Under the pieces are notes generated by a model. It was not told the origin of the DNA. It did not search any database and saw only the letters and a list, made by a program, of their open reading frames with translations. A DNA stretch of 64,000 bases from contig OZ252212.1 in NCBI GenBank assembly GCA_965248955.1, positions 959,042 through 1,023,041 on the forward strand, read 5' to 3'. Positions 4,316 to 32,091 of this stretch are shown here, piece by piece (position 1 is the first letter of the stretch; every line of letters begins with the position of its first letter). The translations under genes were made by a program, and so were the position numbers. The DNA is from Dehalococcoidia bacterium (GTDB taxonomy: Bacteria; Chloroflexota; Dehalococcoidia; Lucifugimonadales; QGNO01).

Positions 4316-4452
4316 GACTCCACCTGAGAAGGTTCGAACCGCTGATCAAAGCCCAGACTGCATACTAGTTGTCGATCCGCGTATACTTGGCTGCCGCATC
4401 CAAATCGACCGCCCACGAGTACCGCAGTTTTTCGTTGCGATCAATTCGTTAA
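4316..4452 (-). repeat. Dispersed repeat family, copy 1 (long form, ~135 nt)
   Basis: Plus strand reads ccacctgagaaggttcgaacc ... gtcgatccgc-loop-gcatccaaatcgac cgcccacgagtaccgcagtttttcg. A 37-nt stretch is identical to copy 2 in inverted orientation. It lies directly 3' of the agmatinase-family stop codon. Confidence 0.85.
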
Positions 4453-7883: not shown

Positions 7884-8573
7884 CTATACGGACCACTCTT
7901 CCATCCTGTACGCGGCGTCCCAGAACATGTACTCGTACTTGCTGTTCGAGACAAAAATCTGTGCCAGATGCTCCCGCTGCTCCTCGCCGAGGCCCTGCGC
8001 AGTGCGATCCATGAACGAACGAAGCCACTCGGCCAGTTCGCCGAATTCGGGCGAGCTGTACATCTCGATCCACCGGCAGTAGAGGGGATGATCCGCAGGC
8101 TTGCCCCGCGCCTCCAGGGCCTGCCCTATCTCCGCGTATCCCCAGGAGCATGGCAAGAGAGTAGCCGCAATCTCACCGATCGTGCCCGAGTGCGCATTGG
8201 AGAGCATGTGATTAGTGTACGCGAGGGTCGTGGGCGATAGTTGGGTTGCCAGGAGCTCAGATTCTGATATGCCAAAGTCCTGACAGAAGCTAACGTGTAG
8301 GGCCATCTCTGTGTTCAGCGTCTCGTGGAGCAGTCTCGCGAACCAGCCCATGTCGTCGAGAGAGTCTGCCTTGGCGGCGGCCATGGCAATAACGCGGCAG
8401 AAGTCGATCAGGAACAGGTAGTCCTGTCTCATATACCATTGGAATTTCTCCAGAGGAAGCGTACCATCTCCGAGCTCAACTACGAACGGGTGCCGATGCT
8501 CCATCTTCCAGATGCCCGAAGCGCGGTCTCTCAGAATGTCGCTGAACTTGGTCACTCGCAGATTGTTCCTCAT
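7884..8573 (-). CDS. tenA: TenA-family thiaminase II / aminopyrimidine aminohydrolase
   Basis: 229-aa ORF. HPFVVELGDGTLPLEKFQWYMRQDYLFL is typical of the TenA/PqqC-like fold. Confidence 0.85.
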   Translation of the reverse strand: MRNNLRVTKFSDILRDRASGIWKMEHRHPFVVELGDGTLPLEKFQWYMRQDYLFLIDFCRVIAMAAAKADSLDDMGWFARLLHETLNTEMALHVSFCQDFGISESELLATQLSPTTLAYTNHMLSNAHSGTIGEIAATLLPCSWGYAEIGQALEARGKPADHPLYCRWIEMYSSPEFGELAEWLRSFMDRTAQGLGEEQREHLAQIFVSNSKYEYMFWDAAYRMEEWSV

Positions 8574-8595
8574 CGGGGATTGCGGGGACGTCTAA

Positions 8596-8853
8596 TTATT
8601 CACCGATTCTGCTCGCATTGCAACGGGCCCGCAGGTCATCAATGGCGAAACGTACATCGATCCCTAGACCCCTACTCCATGCCGCCTCAGCTGCCCCCAG
8701 CGACATGGCACTACATCCACAGAACAAATATACTACTCCCAACTGAGGCCGAAGTTTCTCGAAAGGAGGACGTTCGGAGCGAAGCCAGGGATCTCTGTCT
8801 TGGGTTGTGCCTACATCTTTAGAGCTGGGCGGTAGGGCAGCGCTTCTAGTCAT
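8596..8853 (-). pseudogene. N-terminal fragment of a C5 DNA methyltransferase-like gene
   Basis: VVYLFCGCSAMSLGAAEA...RFAIDDLRARCNA resembles motif I and the start of Dcm-type MTases. Only about 50 aa are present, and the ORF runs into the tenA upstream region. Confidence 0.35.
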
Positions 8854-8897
8854 CTCGGGCTCTTCCTGTCTATGCTACTTCGGTCGAGCAAGCATAT

Positions 8898-9062
8898 ATG
8901 TTCGCGGAACGTGGGTGGACGCGATCCAGAGCATGTGACAGACTTACAGAGCCAAGCCCCGCCGAGCTGTGCGACGCCTTCTGTGCGGGACGGCGAGACT
9001 TCGAATTCTACCTGCCGATGGTGATGTCGGCCAACAGCGTACTCGACGTCGGCTGCGGGACC
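8898..9062 (+). pseudogene. N-terminal fragment of a class I SAM-dependent methyltransferase
   Basis: The sequence ends at the SAM-binding motif VLDVGCGT. Similarity stops abruptly at about 9062. Confidence 0.4.
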
Positions 9063-9076
9063 TCAGAAAAGAGGAT

Positions 9077-9193
9077 ATGGCCAAGCCTAATCCAGAATAT
9101 CAGCGGGGAGTCGTATGGACATCCGATCAGCAGATGAAGCTGATTGATTCAGTGATGCGAGGATATCAGCTGCCGATCATATACATGCACTGG
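9077..9193 (+). pseudogene. N-terminal fragment of a DUF262 (GmrSD/ParB-like nuclease) gene
   Basis: PEYQRGVVWTSDQQMKLIDSVMRGYQLPIIY matches the DUF262 signature. Only about 39 aa are present before the frame becomes a different protein. Confidence 0.5.
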
Positions 9194-9355
9194 GCCTTCA
9201 GCGAGCAGGACATGGCTGCGATGAAGCGGCTGCGGGCGGCCTTCTGCCCCGATGCAGGCTTCAACCCCGGCAATATTTTCCCTGACGAGGCTCAGCCGCA
9301 CCGGGAGTCGGAATTACATAAGCCCGTGCCCCAGGCCTCTGGGATGTATGTCTAG
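9194..9355 (+). pseudogene. C-terminal fragment of an FAD-linked oxidase (GlcD-like) gene
   Basis: MKRLRAAFCPDAGFNPGNIFP is the typical C-terminal tail of FAD-binding oxidases. It is fused in frame to the DUF262 fragment. Confidence 0.45.
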
Positions 9356-9399
9356 CGCCCGGATGGAACGGCAATTTCGGATTTCACCAGGAGAGAAAC

Positions 9400-10314
9400 A
9401 TGAGCAACTTTGAGAAATTGCAGGACCGCCTGGCAGCGGGGGAGACGATCTTGATGGACGGGGGTATGGGCTCGGAGTTCGAGAGGCGGGGGCTGGCAAG
9501 CCCCACCACGTGGTCGGGCGGTCCGATGCTCACCTATCCCGAGTTGGTGAGGGATATTCATCAGGAATACATAGAAGCGGGCGCCGAGATTATCATCACA
9601 AACACCTTTGGCACAGGGCGTGACATGCTGGAAGAGGGCGGCCTCGAGCACAAGGTAGCCGAGGCCAACAAGCTGGGAATCGAAGCGGCGGTACAGGCAA
9701 GGAGAAACGCCGGGACAGAGGACTCGGTGGTCATTGCGGCCTCCGTATCTACGATGGCTCCCAAGGAACACGCGGAAGTTCCGGTGCCCTATGAGAGAGC
9801 TCTAGAGACCTACCGGGAGCAGCTGGGAGAGCTGGCCAAAGGCGGCCCAGACGTGGCGGTGGGCGAGATGTTGGTCCGGATATCAGACGCGCTTGCGGTG
9901 ATAGAAGCGGCAGCGGAGTTGGGTCTCCCGGTGTGGGTCGGGCTCTCCCTGATCCGGGATGGAGACGGGCTTTACCTGGGCATCCAAGACAGGCATGGAA
10001 GCGAGACCCTTCAAGACGCCATGGACGCCATCAAGGACAAGGACATCGCATCGGTATTCATAATGCACACGCCGGTGGACGACACGGGGCCCGGGCTGGA
10101 GATAGTCAAGAAGAATTGGGCGGGAACCTTCGGCGCCTACGCCCATTTCCCCGGCCACGGCGGCCCAACCCCCAAGGCAAATGCCCTGGACCCACAGCAG
10201 TACCTGGAATACGCCAAGGGGTGGAGTGAGCAGGGGGCGCGAATAATTGGAGGGTGCTGCGGCACGAGACCCGACCACATCCGGGCACTCAGGGAGTGGT
10301 TGTCCGGCTCTTAG
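9400..10314 (+). CDS. mmuM: Homocysteine S-methyltransferase
   Basis: 304-aa ORF with LMDGGMGSE near the N-terminus and the zinc-binding GGCCGT near the C-terminus. Confidence 0.85.
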   Translation: MSNFEKLQDRLAAGETILMDGGMGSEFERRGLASPTTWSGGPMLTYPELVRDIHQEYIEAGAEIIITNTFGTGRDMLEEGGLEHKVAEANKLGIEAAVQARRNAGTEDSVVIAASVSTMAPKEHAEVPVPYERALETYREQLGELAKGGPDVAVGEMLVRISDALAVIEAAAELGLPVWVGLSLIRDGDGLYLGIQDRHGSETLQDAMDAIKDKDIASVFIMHTPVDDTGPGLEIVKKNWAGTFGAYAHFPGHGGPTPKANALDPQQYLEYAKGWSEQGARIIGGCCGTRPDHIRALREWLSGS

Positions 10315-10345: not shown

Positions 10346-10492
10346 ATGGCCATCCCTCACTCCCTGCAATGGGAGATCGGTCGGGTCCCTCGCAACCGTA
10401 AGATTACTCACGGGCCGGGCCTCAGTGGGTTTGCCGTCGACGGCATCGAACCCGGGGCCGCGGTCTTCCCAAACACCATCGAGGAAGTGAGC
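10346..10492 (+). pseudogene. N-terminal fragment of an FAD-linked oxidase (GlcD-like) gene
   Basis: ITHGPGLSGFAVDGIEPGAAVFPNTIEEV resembles the ...y..D......P.aVv.P.s.eEV start of this family. Similarity ends at about 10492. Confidence 0.35.
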
Positions 10493-10704
10493 CTGCGATT
10501 ATCCCACCCGGGCTTCCCAAGCTCGGGCCTGACCTCAAATGGGACCGGCGCAATGCCCTCAACGGGTATTGGTTCACGTGGATTCCTGCTGCGACCTGGC
10601 CACTCCTCGTTGCTACAATGGCATTGCAAGCTATAAAGTGGTTCTGTCTACCGTCAAAATAGGCCCACCCAACTGGACAAAATCAAGAACCTTCATCCGT
10701 CAGG

Positions 10705-10835
10705 CACAATCGACACAAAAAACTGCGGTACTCGTGGGCGGTCGATTTGGATGCAATCAGGTAATGTTAGGGGATCGACGAATGGTTGTGACACCTCGGC
10801 CCTAATCACCCGTTCGAGCCTTCTCCAGTGGGTTG
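10705..10835 (+). repeat. Dispersed repeat family, copy 2 (long form, inverted relative to copy 1)
   Basis: cacaatcgacacaaaaaactgcggtactcgtgggcggtcgatttggatgc-loop-ggatcgac...cccgttcgagccttctccagtgg. It has the same architecture as copy 1, with a different hairpin loop. Confidence 0.85.
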
Positions 10836-10916: not shown

Positions 10917-11161
10917 TCAGTGAGTAACCGTCATCGCGCCTCCAAGGGTCTCGCCACGATGCTCCGGACGATAGTACGAATAGACCTGGGAGACGACCTC
11001 TTTGGCCCGGACCGGGTACTTGGCCCGCGCCTGGAACCCGAATGAGACCGTCTCGCCCGGCATCATGTCCTCGATGTAGAGGATCACCTTCCGACCCGCG
11101 ATTTCGAATCGCTTGAGGCTCGCGGCCGTCATCGACAGAGCGCGCACTATCGCCCCAGACG
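10917..11161 (-). pseudogene. C-terminal fragment of a bacterial alpha-2-macroglobulin-family gene
   Basis: LKRFEIAGRKVILYIEDMMPGETVSFGFQARAKYPVRAKEVVSQVYSYYRPEHRGE matches the receptor-binding-type C-terminal domain. No upstream domains are present. Confidence 0.55.
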
Positions 11162-11585
11162 CCCGCAGCTTCGCAGTTCGAGTGACAAGGGTTCGGTGAC
11201 GGCACGGCTGGCAATTGCAATGTCGTATGCCAGACGAATCCCGCCAAGCCGGAAAGACCGATATGTGTGCTCCGGTCAGCAGGAAGGTTGTCAGGTAAGT
11301 CCGGTCACGATCTGTCCCGACACCACCCTCGCACACCTGTGAGGGAACGTTTTCTTGGCTCGAAACGTATTATCAAGTATGGGCTCGTTCGAAGGTGTCA
11401 AGAAGTCGCCGCAGTGGGTGCAGAGGAACATCGCGATGGGCTTCGTTGCTATCGGGGAACTTTTCCCTGTTCCGGTGCGTCTTACTCGTTGCAGGCTCAC
11501 ATTTTGGGCGGGACAATAAATGACGCACCAGGACGAGGCCATCCAGAGGCATTGCGATTCCAGATAGAGGAAGACGGTTTACACG

Positions 11586-14239: not shown

Positions 14240-14352
14240 GCAGACTCCCCCTTACATCACAAACCGACTGGCTGGGAGATTCAGCTTCATTTCTACCCGA
14301 AATCTTCAGATCGACCGTCCAAGAGTAGCTCAGTTTATTGTGTCGATTGAGA
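14240..14352 (-). repeat. Dispersed repeat family, copy 4
   Basis: aaccgactggct...atcttcagatcgaccgtccaagagtagctcagtttattgtgtcgattgagaaatgggg. The right flank gtcgattgagaaatggggatggtgtat is shared with copies 7 and 10, next to a recombinase 3' remnant. Confidence 0.7.
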
Positions 14353-25244: not shown

Positions 25245-25285
25245 GCTCACCGCCCACGAGTACCGCATTTTCTGTTTCTATTGCC
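25245..25285 (-). repeat. Dispersed repeat family, copy 5 (core; long form about 25024-25290)
   Basis: ctcaccgcccacgagtaccgcattttctgtttctattgcc. It is preceded by a long-range stem (gagcgtagc...gctacgctc) and an outer box ccaaggaaggctcgaacc at about 25030. Confidence 0.75.
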
Positions 25286-31560: not shown

Positions 31561-32091
31561 TCACTTCCCTGTTTCACTGGTCGCCCGTAACGTCTGCTCA
31601 AGGCTTTCCAGTTTTTCGCGCAGTTCTGAAACGCTTTCCTCGACATGCTGTCCCGCCGTGTCTATGACGATACCGGCTTCCCAAGGTTCATACTCCCGTT
31701 CGCAGACCTCCTGCCACGTAGGTAATCGGTGTCCCGCGATGTCGGCTATCCGTGTTTCCACTCTGCGCTGGTGCTCCGCCTGGTCGGAACAGACGATCCC
31801 GATCTCGATGCACCGCTCGCCTGCTCGTTTGGCGACATCCCGCCAAGCGGCTCGGGTTGACCCCACTGGGTTCACGGAATCGGCTATCACGGTGCGGCCC
31901 AGTCTCAGATTGTCTTCGGCAATCGCATAGGCTACCACGTACCCCTCGGGCCCGGATACTGTTATGTTGGAGTTGCGCAGCGTCTGCTCGATGGAATCGA
32001 TGCGCAGATGAACAGCCTCTATGTCGCGTGCCAGTCCGGTGGCAATCGCTGTTTTCCCCACCGCCGGAAGGCCTCCGAAGATCAATAACAT
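31561..32091 (-). CDS. P-loop kinase (AAA_33-like ATP-binding protein)
   Basis: 176-aa ORF with Walker A GGLPAVGKT at the N-terminus. Confidence 0.7.
   Translation of the reverse strand: MLLIFGGLPAVGKTAIATGLARDIEAVHLRIDSIEQTLRNSNITVSGPEGYVVAYAIAEDNLRLGRTVIADSVNPVGSTRAAWRDVAKRAGERCIEIGIVCSDQAEHQRRVETRIADIAGHRLPTWQEVCEREYEPWEAGIVIDTAGQHVEESVSELREKLESLEQTLRATSETGK

Follow-up and report, generated by a model that had tools for sequence, protein, structure and literature searches.

Dead fragments of four unrelated genes between intact TenA and homocysteine S-methyltransferase genes in a SAR202-type Dehalococcoidia genome

The window analysed here is a stretch of 64,000 nucleotides from a Dehalococcoidia (SAR202-type) host. 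Within it, a gap of 826 bp (8574-9399) separates an intact gene for TenA from an intact gene for homocysteine S-methyltransferase (HMT), and this gap holds dead fragments of four unrelated genes. The features of the gap and its flanks, in order of position, are the following.

7884-8573, minus strand: TenA/thiaminase II gene, intact, left flank (Pfam TENA_THI-4, E = 2.5e-54; homologues 90% identical)
8595-8623, minus strand: sigma-70-like TenA promoter, TTGCAA-17-AATAAT (promoter scan)
8624-8634, no strand: junction A, 11 nt without homology to either neighbour (comparison with relatives)
8635-8853, minus strand: relic of a C5 cytosine DNA methyltransferase (C5-MTase), N-terminal 73 aa, within ORF 8596-8853 (exhaustive HMMER search)
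8854-8932, no strand: spacer of 79 bp between two divergent stub starts (no similarity found)
8933-9062, plus strand: relic of a class I SAM-dependent small-molecule methyltransferase (SAM-MTase), residues 3-45 of 243 (homologue search)
9058-9062, plus strand: junction B, GGACC common to the MTase (..TGCGGGACC) and DUF262 (..GGTGGACCTCAG) sequences (parental comparison)
9059-9184, plus strand: DUF262/GmrSD_N relic, residues 15-56 (Pfam GmrSD_N; homologues P0015-P0046)
9078-9355, plus strand: chimeric ORF of 92 aa, DUF262 residues 21-56 fused in frame to the oxidase tail (AGAGGA 5 nt before the ATG)
9179-9184, plus strand: junction C, a window-specific 121-bp deletion between ATATAC and ATGTAC (TAC exact, 5/6 overall)
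9182-9355, plus strand: relic of a GlcD-like FAD-linked oxidase, last 58 aa (residues 423-480 of the L066 protein) and stop codon (Pfam, collinearity)
9400-10314, plus strand: HMT gene, intact (Pfam S-methyl_trans, E = 1.9e-48)
10346-10612, plus strand: fifth relic, N-terminal 89 aa of a second, GlcE-like FAD oxidase (tblastn, 58% identity, E = 1.8e-23)

The original prediction had placed four gene stubs at about 8596-9355. All four are real and located as claimed, and each is supported beyond chance, with significant matches for every stub in HMMER, homologue or Pfam searches. Its description of the stubs as joined head to tail applies to the SAM-MTase, DUF262 and oxidase pieces and fails for the C5-MTase piece, which lies on the opposite strand and is therefore divergent from the SAM-MTase stub. 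On the left flank, the TenA start is probably the GTG at 8555, since the TenA proteins of relatives are 223 aa long. The TenA promoter block is conserved in L083-L085, left-hand homology with the relatives' TenA loci stops at 8623-8625, and the left boundary of the debris falls exactly at the conserved promoter. On the right, HMT is the sole gene conserved at the locus across 81 related loci, and what these loci share with the window is HMT plus or minus a few hundred bp only. Duplicated HMT copies account for some of them (L002/L031, L011/L012 and L028/L051). An Rfam search of the region gave no match, a riboswitch or leader in front of TenA or HMT was considered and rejected, and the annotated ORFs within about 8 kb of the region include no intact defence gene.

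The C5-MTase stub was recovered only by an exhaustive HMMER search of 1.84 billion representatives, which gave 25 matches at E ≤ 1e-3; Pfam and PDB searches with the stub itself returned nothing. Its best match, P0198 (E = 7.8e-18), is 62% identical over aa 9-73, and residues 22-73 also match the full-length proteins P0201, P0218, P0219 and P0220, which are PF00145 C-5 DNA methylases. The homology stops at residue 72/73, corresponding to window position 8635, with TenA promoter sequence beyond. Motif I (AdoMet binding, F-x-G-x-G-G) is not intact, reading YLFCGCSA in the window as against DLFCGCGG in relatives, and the stub also lacks motif IV with its P-C-Q catalytic cysteine and the target-recognition domain, and falls short of the 320 aa or more expected of a PF00145 member. 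Its sequence marks it as a relic and not as a functional PF00145 member, and a functional Dcm-like small protein was considered and rejected.

The SAM-MTase stub is 75-82% identical over about 43 aa to the N-termini of 243-aa class I methyltransferases, with E values down to 4.8e-11 in a search of 5.8 billion proteins; when the C5-MTase and SAM-MTase stubs were joined end to end for a word-indexed homologue search, only the SAM-MTase part gave matches. As predicted, the stub ends inside motif I at VLDVGCGT, window position 9062. The Rossmann-fold core beyond motif I, a domain found at residues 38-130 of the full-length relative P0047, is missing. The ORF start listed at 8898 proved to be fortuitous: the native start is the ATG at 8933, now vestigial and out of frame, with residues 3-45 in another frame as a result of a 2-nt and a 3-nt deletion. 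Full-length relatives match only small-molecule families (Methyltransf_25/11/12/23, with UbiE/Tam-like names) and adjoin metabolic genes, namely an acetyltransferase, CoA-transferases or an MFS transporter. An identity as a restriction-modification (RM) DNA methyltransferase was rejected, the relatives lying outside the N6/N4 and C5 DNA-MTase families and having no RM context.

The 79-bp spacer between these two divergent stubs resembles neither L086 nor the sequence preceding the MTase in L082 and L087. C5-MTase and SAM-MTase genes were not adjacent at any of the loci compared, which were L082 and L087 for the MTase, L086 for the C5-MTase stub, and 80 C5-MTase loci from metagenomes. Because no relative has the two genes as neighbours, the 437-bp fragment that carries both stubs may include an additional junction within 8854-8932. 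Neither junctions A and B nor the two methyltransferase stubs have a counterpart in the other assemblies searched (81 related loci, JGI metagenomes and the 80 metagenome C5-MTase loci), so the history of this part of the gap rests on one sequence.

For the DUF262 stub, comparison with relatives is more informative. It matches Pfam GmrSD_N at profile positions 14-50 of 199 (E = 1.4e-7), and L001 and L002 have longer DUF262 stubs whose nucleotide sequences are 94-98% identical to it. Its first residues are DLRKED (9059), ahead of the start that had been claimed, and it has a 5-bp overlap with the MTase stub. The DGQQR motif, which is at residues 74-78 in P0018 (L001), is deleted in the window. 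The C-terminal DUF1524 (HNH-type) nuclease domain is missing in the window and was also not detected in L088, the contig of the closest homologue, so that the parent gene may have been either GmrSD proper or a DUF262-only protein. In three sister loci, L001, L002 and L014, HMT is preceded by a common stretch of about 1.25 kb that contains BrnT, BrnA, a longer DUF262 stub and the oxidase relic. BrnT and BrnA (Pfam E = 2e-20 and 2e-13) are the only intact islet genes there, and in L014 the DUF262 part is interrupted by a stop codon (TAT TAG). The HMT locus yielded no intact DUF262 gene, and all that is documented of the islet is BrnTA with a truncated DUF262. Because three sister genomes carry BrnT-BrnA and a longer DUF262 stub at the same place, their sequences indicate that the region upstream of HMT once received a small toxin-antitoxin/defence islet.

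The oxidase piece, put at about 35 aa in the original prediction, is in fact 58 aa long. Eight relatives have, directly upstream of HMT, an intact gene of 480-484 aa with whose final 58 aa the piece is collinear, and its Pfam match is to the very end of the FAD-oxidase_C profile (positions 217-248 of 248, E = 0.002). The window sequence has neither the FAD_binding_4 domain nor a complete C-terminal domain; the intact L066 orthologue has both. The eight relatives are more distant loci (L066, L068, L070, L073, L075, L076, L080 and L081) in which an operon of GlcD-like (480-484 aa), HMT and GlcE-like (453 aa) genes is intact, the GlcE-like gene lying after HMT. The sequence comparison identifies the oxidase stub as a remnant of this resident metabolic operon, not of the islet. 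In around 17 closer loci the oxidase genes survive as remnants with frameshifts and internal deletions: the first residue kept varies between 322 and 440 for the GlcD-like protein, and the last residue kept varies between 15 and 105 for the GlcE-like one. About 50 loci have no detectable remnant. Farther downstream in the window, a relic of an A2M C-terminus lies at 10920-11336.

Taken by gene type, two stubs are of the defence kind (C5-MTase and DUF262/GmrSD) and the SAM-MTase and oxidase stubs are metabolic, in place of the three defence-type genes that had been proposed. The suggestion of an eroded defence islet is therefore half right: the two defence-type relics and the BrnT-BrnA/DUF262 islet of the sisters speak for it, and the two metabolic stubs do not.

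The junctions offer a view of how the pieces were joined. Microhomology of 3-5 bp is present at B and C, the two junctions for which a parental sequence is available, which bears out the proposal of illegitimate recombination. At junction C, L001 and L002 retain the 121 bp missing from the window, and the homology of this segment to both parent genes shows the window state to be the derived one. L014 has an independent deletion ending 3 bp from the window's junction C, and both are in frame; two in-frame deletions within 3 bp are slightly unexpected under pure neutrality. The same original statement opposed recombination to slow decay, and this part did not hold: point decay is also present, in C5 motif I, at the SAM-MTase start and in the frameshifted oxidase relics of relatives. 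A 10-nt inverted repeat (9/10) has its arms, GGGCCCGCAG at 8625-8634 and CTGCGGGACC at 9053-9062, on junctions A and B. Among 20,000 random position pairs of the same spacing in the window, 0.5% were as good within 6 nt either side, an empirical P of about 0.005 for a test that was post hoc and concerned a G+C-rich motif. Simple deletions do not account for this repeat on the two junctions.

We conclude that the content of the gap is ordinary genome decay and no new system. Successive small deletions and rearrangements very probably left the four-gene debris between TenA and HMT, and we hold with considerable confidence, extending to the event order and mechanism given here, that the best explanation is a gene graveyard in a structurally unstable locus. 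The comparisons above show directly what each relic is, the ancestral operon, the islet of the sister genomes and the sequences of the junctions; from them we infer in what order the events took place, which enzymes acted and how far selection set the boundaries. In the ancestral state HMT was part of a glcD-like/HMT/glcE-like operon. Both oxidase genes would have been inactivated in the clade that includes this genome and then trimmed by lineage-specific deletions, with HMT kept by selection. A mobile islet consisting of BrnT-BrnA and a DUF262/GmrSD gene may then have entered the dying glcD-like gene, DUF262 being later cut to its 5′ part. In the lineage of the window, the 121-bp deletion (ATATAC/ATGTAC) would have joined DUF262 residue 56 in frame to the oxidase tail, and a later rearrangement would have substituted the 437-bp fragment for all sequence upstream of DUF262 codon 15. 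That fragment, in which a C5-DNA-methyltransferase gene and a small-molecule SAM-methyltransferase gene are represented by their divergent 5′ ends, abuts the TenA -35 box. The junctions probably originated by microhomology-mediated illegitimate recombination, through slippage, end-joining or template switching and with no site-specific recombinase, and point mutations and 2-3-nt indels would have produced decay in parallel. The relic pieces presumably have no function of their own, and deletions would halt where TenA or HMT expression would suffer.

Other readings of the same debris differ in how much of it they can accommodate. Since the sequence is from a MAG lineage, the junctions, especially A and B, could be metagenome misjoins; neither has a match among the 81 related loci, and a 26-mer across junction B had 0 matches in JGI metagenomes. 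We nevertheless judge an assembly chimera extremely unlikely. Three independent assemblies (L001, L002 and L014) also have DUF262, oxidase and HMT sequences in this arrangement, and junction C is a clean 121-bp deletion within otherwise 94-98% identical sequence. It is also spanned by P0001, a gene caller's 73-aa product, because P0001 is 100% identical to residues 20-92 of the chimeric ORF. Misjoins arise at long repeats, of which the region has none elsewhere in the window, and GC content is continuous across the region. Site-specific recombination, which the original prediction had offered beside the illegitimate kind, would make the stubs cassettes or scars of an integron-like recombinase, an integrative element or IS-mediated deletions. 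Mobile DNA does occur in the wider context: the sister locus L001 has five transposase ORFs within 8 kb, IS elements interrupt homologues elsewhere (a DDE transposase in L086, IS256-type transposases in L089-L091), and a dispersed repeat with a tRNA-Lys 3′-end-like start is found at the right-hand synteny break, 10660-10760. Against this, 8574-9399 has no IS ends and no repeated element or paralogue elsewhere in the window, and the junctions have no recurring boundary motif and no att-/attC-like repeats. Transposases and integrases are absent from the annotated ORFs of at least 150 aa within about 8 kb, as well as between 1.4 and 20 kb; a tRNA scan of the window found no tRNA gene, and plasmid and phage DNA collections gave no match to the region. 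Integron cassettes were rejected on the lack of attC/att repeats at the boundaries and of an integrase among the annotated ORFs, and IS scars inside the region on the lack of IS ends. Junctions B and C are accounted for by 3-5 bp of parental microhomology, and we consider a site-specific or transposon-driven origin very unlikely.

Exaptation would give the debris a present use, with relics supplying a promoter, RBS or translational coupling to HMT and TenA, captured 5′ ends serving HMT transcription, or the 92-aa chimera acting as a putative new microprotein. Each stub is co-oriented with the flanking intact gene (stub 1 with TenA, stubs 2-4 with HMT), three of the four are 5′ ends, the chimera has its AGAGGA box 5 nt before the ATG, and the in-frame fusions in the window and L014 arose independently with ends so close together. 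The stop codon in the DUF262 part of L014 argues against such a use, as do the frameshifted or internally deleted oxidase tails of many relatives and the complete lack of a tail in about 50 of them. A promoter scan of 8854-9400 found no plus-strand promoter-like site, and TenA has its own conserved promoter; a role for the relics in expression, or for the chimera as a protein, seems very unlikely on this evidence. A single complex event, either an inversion between the arms of the short inverted repeat or a template switch at it, may have made junctions A and B together, and would refine the graveyard explanation. Both arms fall exactly on the two junctions with the rarity given above, and the left arm is the 11-nt "filler" that matches neither neighbour, the right arm being native SAM-MTase sequence. 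The post hoc nature of the test and the G+C-rich motif weaken this argument, re-inverting the segment restores no gene's continuity, and no relative preserves the pre-event state, so that we regard one event as possible but on balance doubtful.

The gene graveyard that we favour has known parallels. Pseudogene relics under deletional bias are reportedly a feature of Rickettsia, Mycobacterium leprae and insect symbionts, as is said to have been described by Andersson and Andersson and by Mira, Ochman and Moran. The TenA-HMT gap resembles these in its short non-functional fragments between working genes, in the graded remnant lengths across relatives, in frameshifts and small indels that occur beside larger deletions, and in deletions that stop at functional neighbours. 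It differs in that the host is not obviously reduced, related chromosomes measuring 2-4.3 Mb, and in that several unrelated relics are packed into 760 bp, a density that we attribute to islet insertion and rearrangement having alternated with deletion. The likeness to defence islands lies in the two defence-type relics (a C5-MTase of the Dcm/Dcm-Vsr kind and DUF262/GmrSD_N) and in BrnTA beside DUF262 in the sisters; homologues elsewhere sit with PIN/MazE, a resolvase and IS elements. In contrast to such islands, the window has no intact defence gene and half of the stubs are metabolic. Microhomology-mediated illegitimate recombination is matched by the 3-5 bp direct microhomologies at B, C and the L014 deletion, and the possibly templated or inverted 10-mer at junction A recalls quasi-palindrome template switching.

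The value of the region is mainly that of a clean negative, with a modest further use as a worked example. Across some 80 related Dehalococcoidia genomes, many of them complete chromosomes, every stage can be seen at one locus, from intact operon through graded remnants to full loss, together with a toxin-antitoxin/DUF262 islet gained and then eroded at the same place. From such a series one could quantify the deletion spectrum, both in size and in the use of microhomology, as well as defence-gene turnover in the lineage. It also carries a warning for annotation, as gene callers report such relics as small "hypothetical proteins", for example P0001-P0014. The lineage includes at least one sponge-metagenome SAR202 bin: related locus L048 (MPND01000021.1, bin90) is from an Aplysina aerophoba metagenome, and a study of that sponge found symbiont genomes to be enriched in restriction-modification and toxin-antitoxin genes (PMC5649159).

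The four stubs occupy an 826-bp gap between two intact genes, TenA and homocysteine S-methyltransferase (HMT). A fifth relic, absent from the original prediction, lies to the right of HMT, and relics flank this gene on both sides:

7884-8573, minus strand: TenA/thiaminase II, intact (Pfam E=2.5e-54)
8635-8853, minus strand: stub 1, C5-MTase
8933-9062, plus strand: stub 2, SAM-MTase
9059-9184, plus strand: stub 3, DUF262
9182-9355, plus strand: stub 4, oxidase tail
9400-10314, plus strand: HMT, intact (E=1.9e-48)
10346-10612, plus strand: fifth relic, GlcE-like residues 1-89 (N-terminal 89 aa; 58% identity, E=1.8e-23)
10660-10760: ~95-nt dispersed repeat, at the right-hand synteny break (10667-10674)
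4320-4441 (minus strand), 14307-14349 and 25249-25283: weaker copies of this repeat

G+C content shows no break along the gap, and no copy or paralogue of the gap sequence occurs elsewhere in the window. Homology (HMMER, Pfam and collinearity with intact relatives) confirms all four predicted stubs as gene relics. They are homologous remnants only: none of the four passes tests of functional family membership, owing to the loss of catalytic motifs or of entire domains.

In the species-representative genome collection, HMT relatives all belong to Dehalococcoidia/Chloroflexota MAGs, many of them complete chromosomes of 2-4.3 Mb. Among them, L048 (bin90) is a SAR202 genome bin recovered from the sponge Aplysina aerophoba, and the study that yielded it found sponge symbionts to be enriched in restriction-modification and toxin-antitoxin genes (PMC5649159). 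At 74-81% HMT identity, eight loci (L066, L068, L070, L073, L075, L076, L080 and L081) have the order glcD-like/HMT/glcE-like, with an FAD oxidase gene on either side. About 17 closer loci, with HMT mostly 93-97% identical, keep only remnants: GlcD-like tails starting anywhere from residue 322 to 440, with frameshifts and internal deletions, and GlcE-like heads ending between residues 15 and 105. No oxidase remnant is detectable in about 50 loci. The window, with GlcD-like residues 423-480, falls within the remnant series. Together, the intact operons and graded remnants indicate that HMT is the surviving gene of a decayed glcD-like/HMT/glcE-like operon.

Stub 4 matches the very end of FAD-oxidase_C. 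It also lines up with the C-terminal 58 residues of the intact GlcD-like oxidase (480-484 aa) whose gene immediately precedes HMT in the eight relatives with the full operon; this collinearity identifies the stub more decisively than the Pfam match. Many assemblies list the oxidase relic as a hypothetical protein of 56-127 aa (P0001-P0014, P0017, P0021, P0027), and relics of this kind swell the counts of small hypothetical proteins in the lineage. Some single MAGs have two HMT copies (the pairs L002/L031, L011/L012 and L028/L051); L002, L011, L012, L031 and L051 still have short relics of the GlcD-like gene, the GlcE-like gene or both, and none was detected beside the L028 copy. These two-copy genomes suggest that the truncated HMT module was duplicated or moved after operon decay. 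In the 1.27-kb gap after HMT, an ORF at 10920-11336 (minus strand) has only a C-terminal A2M_recep domain (Pfam E=1.9e-9) and is apparently another relic, the remaining 3' end of a large bacterial alpha-2-macroglobulin gene.

Stub 3, a GmrSD_N match at E=1.4e-7, is equivalent to residues 15-56 of P0018, the DUF262 stub protein of L001. This locus, L002 and L014 have in common ~1.25 kb upstream of HMT, in the order BrnT and BrnA (both Pfam-confirmed), DUF262 stub, oxidase tail. The common segment therefore represents a small toxin-antitoxin/DUF262 islet that entered a dying glcD-like gene in the common ancestor of the three loci and the window. In three assemblies an IS256-type transposase interrupts a DUF262 homologue.

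The minus-strand ORF at 8596-8853 alone had no match in Pfam or PDB; exhaustive HMMER searching of 1.84 billion representatives gave 25 matches to stub 1 at E<=1e-3, the best (E=7.8e-18) being 62% identical across residues 9-73. Full-length matches are PF00145 C-5 DNA methylases, one fused to Vsr. The alignment covers the N-terminal region of the family and motif I, which is degenerate (YLFCGCSA in the window versus DLFCGCGG in relatives), and homology ends at residue 72/73, window position 8635. The closest C5-MTase homologue is likewise a stub, truncated by a DDE transposase and 126 aa long. Stub 2 shares 75-82% identity with residues 3-45 of class I SAM methyltransferases 243 aa in length; its native ATG, still recognisable at 8933, is put out of frame by a 2-nt deletion, and one further codon is missing. 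A restriction-modification methylase is ruled out for stub 2, since its full-length relatives match small-molecule methyltransferase families only and have metabolic genes as neighbours. The original interpretation is partly right: an eroded islet did exist, as predicted, but only two of the four stubs are of defence type and one is a relic of the resident operon.

The DUF262-oxidase junction (9179-9184) lacks 121 bp found in L001 and L002. The extra bases continue the DUF262 frame as well as the oxidase frame, and the window state is therefore a derived deletion, running between ATATAC and ATGTAC. A separate deletion in L014 arose independently between CAGATG and CACATG, with an endpoint 3 bp away. 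At the SAM-MTase-DUF262 junction (9058-9062), the two sequences (..GGCTGCGGGACC and ..GGTGGACCTCAG) overlap in GGACC. Between the TenA side and the C5-MTase lie eleven bases (8624-8634) that have no match in the C5-MTase family or in the sequence upstream of TenA; ten of these, GGGCCCGCAG, repeat CTGCGGGACC from the SAM-MTase-DUF262 junction in inverted form with 9/10 identity. An inverted repeat as good occurs in 0.5% of random position pairs with the same spacing in this window (a post hoc test), which suggests that these two junctions formed together, by inversion or template switch at the short inverted repeat. Neither junction recurs among the 81 related loci, and a 26-mer across the SAM-MTase-DUF262 junction has 0 hits in the JGI metagenomes. 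Misassembly at these two junctions is conceivable but unlikely: no repeats are present that could drive a misjoin, the deletion at the DUF262-oxidase junction is clean, and three independent assemblies show the arrangement DUF262-oxidase-HMT.

Apart from HMT and a few hundred bp on either side of it, the window has nothing in common with any of the 81 related loci, whose flanks are common only within small groups. At the TenA loci of relatives (L083-L085) the neighbouring genes are different again, and window homology to them stops at 8623-8625, just upstream of the conserved TenA promoter (TTGCAA-17-AATAAT). The locus is unstable throughout the lineage, and illegitimate recombination, one of the predicted processes, is the best-supported account. 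Successive microhomology-mediated events, comprising deletions and at least one rearrangement, would have acted on the decaying operon and its inserted toxin-antitoxin/defence islet. Source genes, ancestral and intermediate states, and junction sequences are directly observed; from them we infer the order of events and the pathway, whether template switching, slippage or end joining. The relic boundaries may have been set by selection acting on HMT and the TenA promoter. Site-specific recombination, also envisaged, is not indicated: no att/attC-like repeats, IS ends or tRNA genes are associated with the junctions, and no integrase or transposase occurs among annotated ORFs of 150 aa or more within ~8 kb. 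The region has no Rfam, plasmid or phage match. Slow decay is present too, small indels and substitutions having built up in parallel.

Retention for function, through promoter or RBS capture or as a 92-aa chimeric microprotein, is hinted at by the orientation shared with intact genes, the kept AGAGGA box and two independent in-frame fusions; against it, the L014 copy has a stop codon, many relatives have frameshifts, and most have lost the relic. The region shows, in textbook form, gene relics under deletional bias, together with the rapid turnover for which defence and toxin-antitoxin islets are well known.

In this lineage, IS elements are clearly among the causes of broken genes; none takes part inside this region. 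Transposase genes (DDE_Tnp_1_4, Transposase_20, DDE_3, IS256-type and IS1182-like) are dense around homologous loci (L001 471-5444, L089-L091 6501-7745, L086 440-1693), where IS insertions interrupt homologues of DUF262 and of the C5-MTase. The ~95-nt dispersed repeat starts with a tRNA 3'-end-like GCCCACC(A/C)AA, has no Rfam match, and also occurs in L008, L016, L020, L031, L069 and L082 (5022-5119), the last copy directly adjoining an intact tRNA-Lys(TTT); an integrative element or MITE may have its end or att site here. Another short dispersed similarity links window 31603-31731 to an unrelated locus, L083 12336-12464, at 84% identity.
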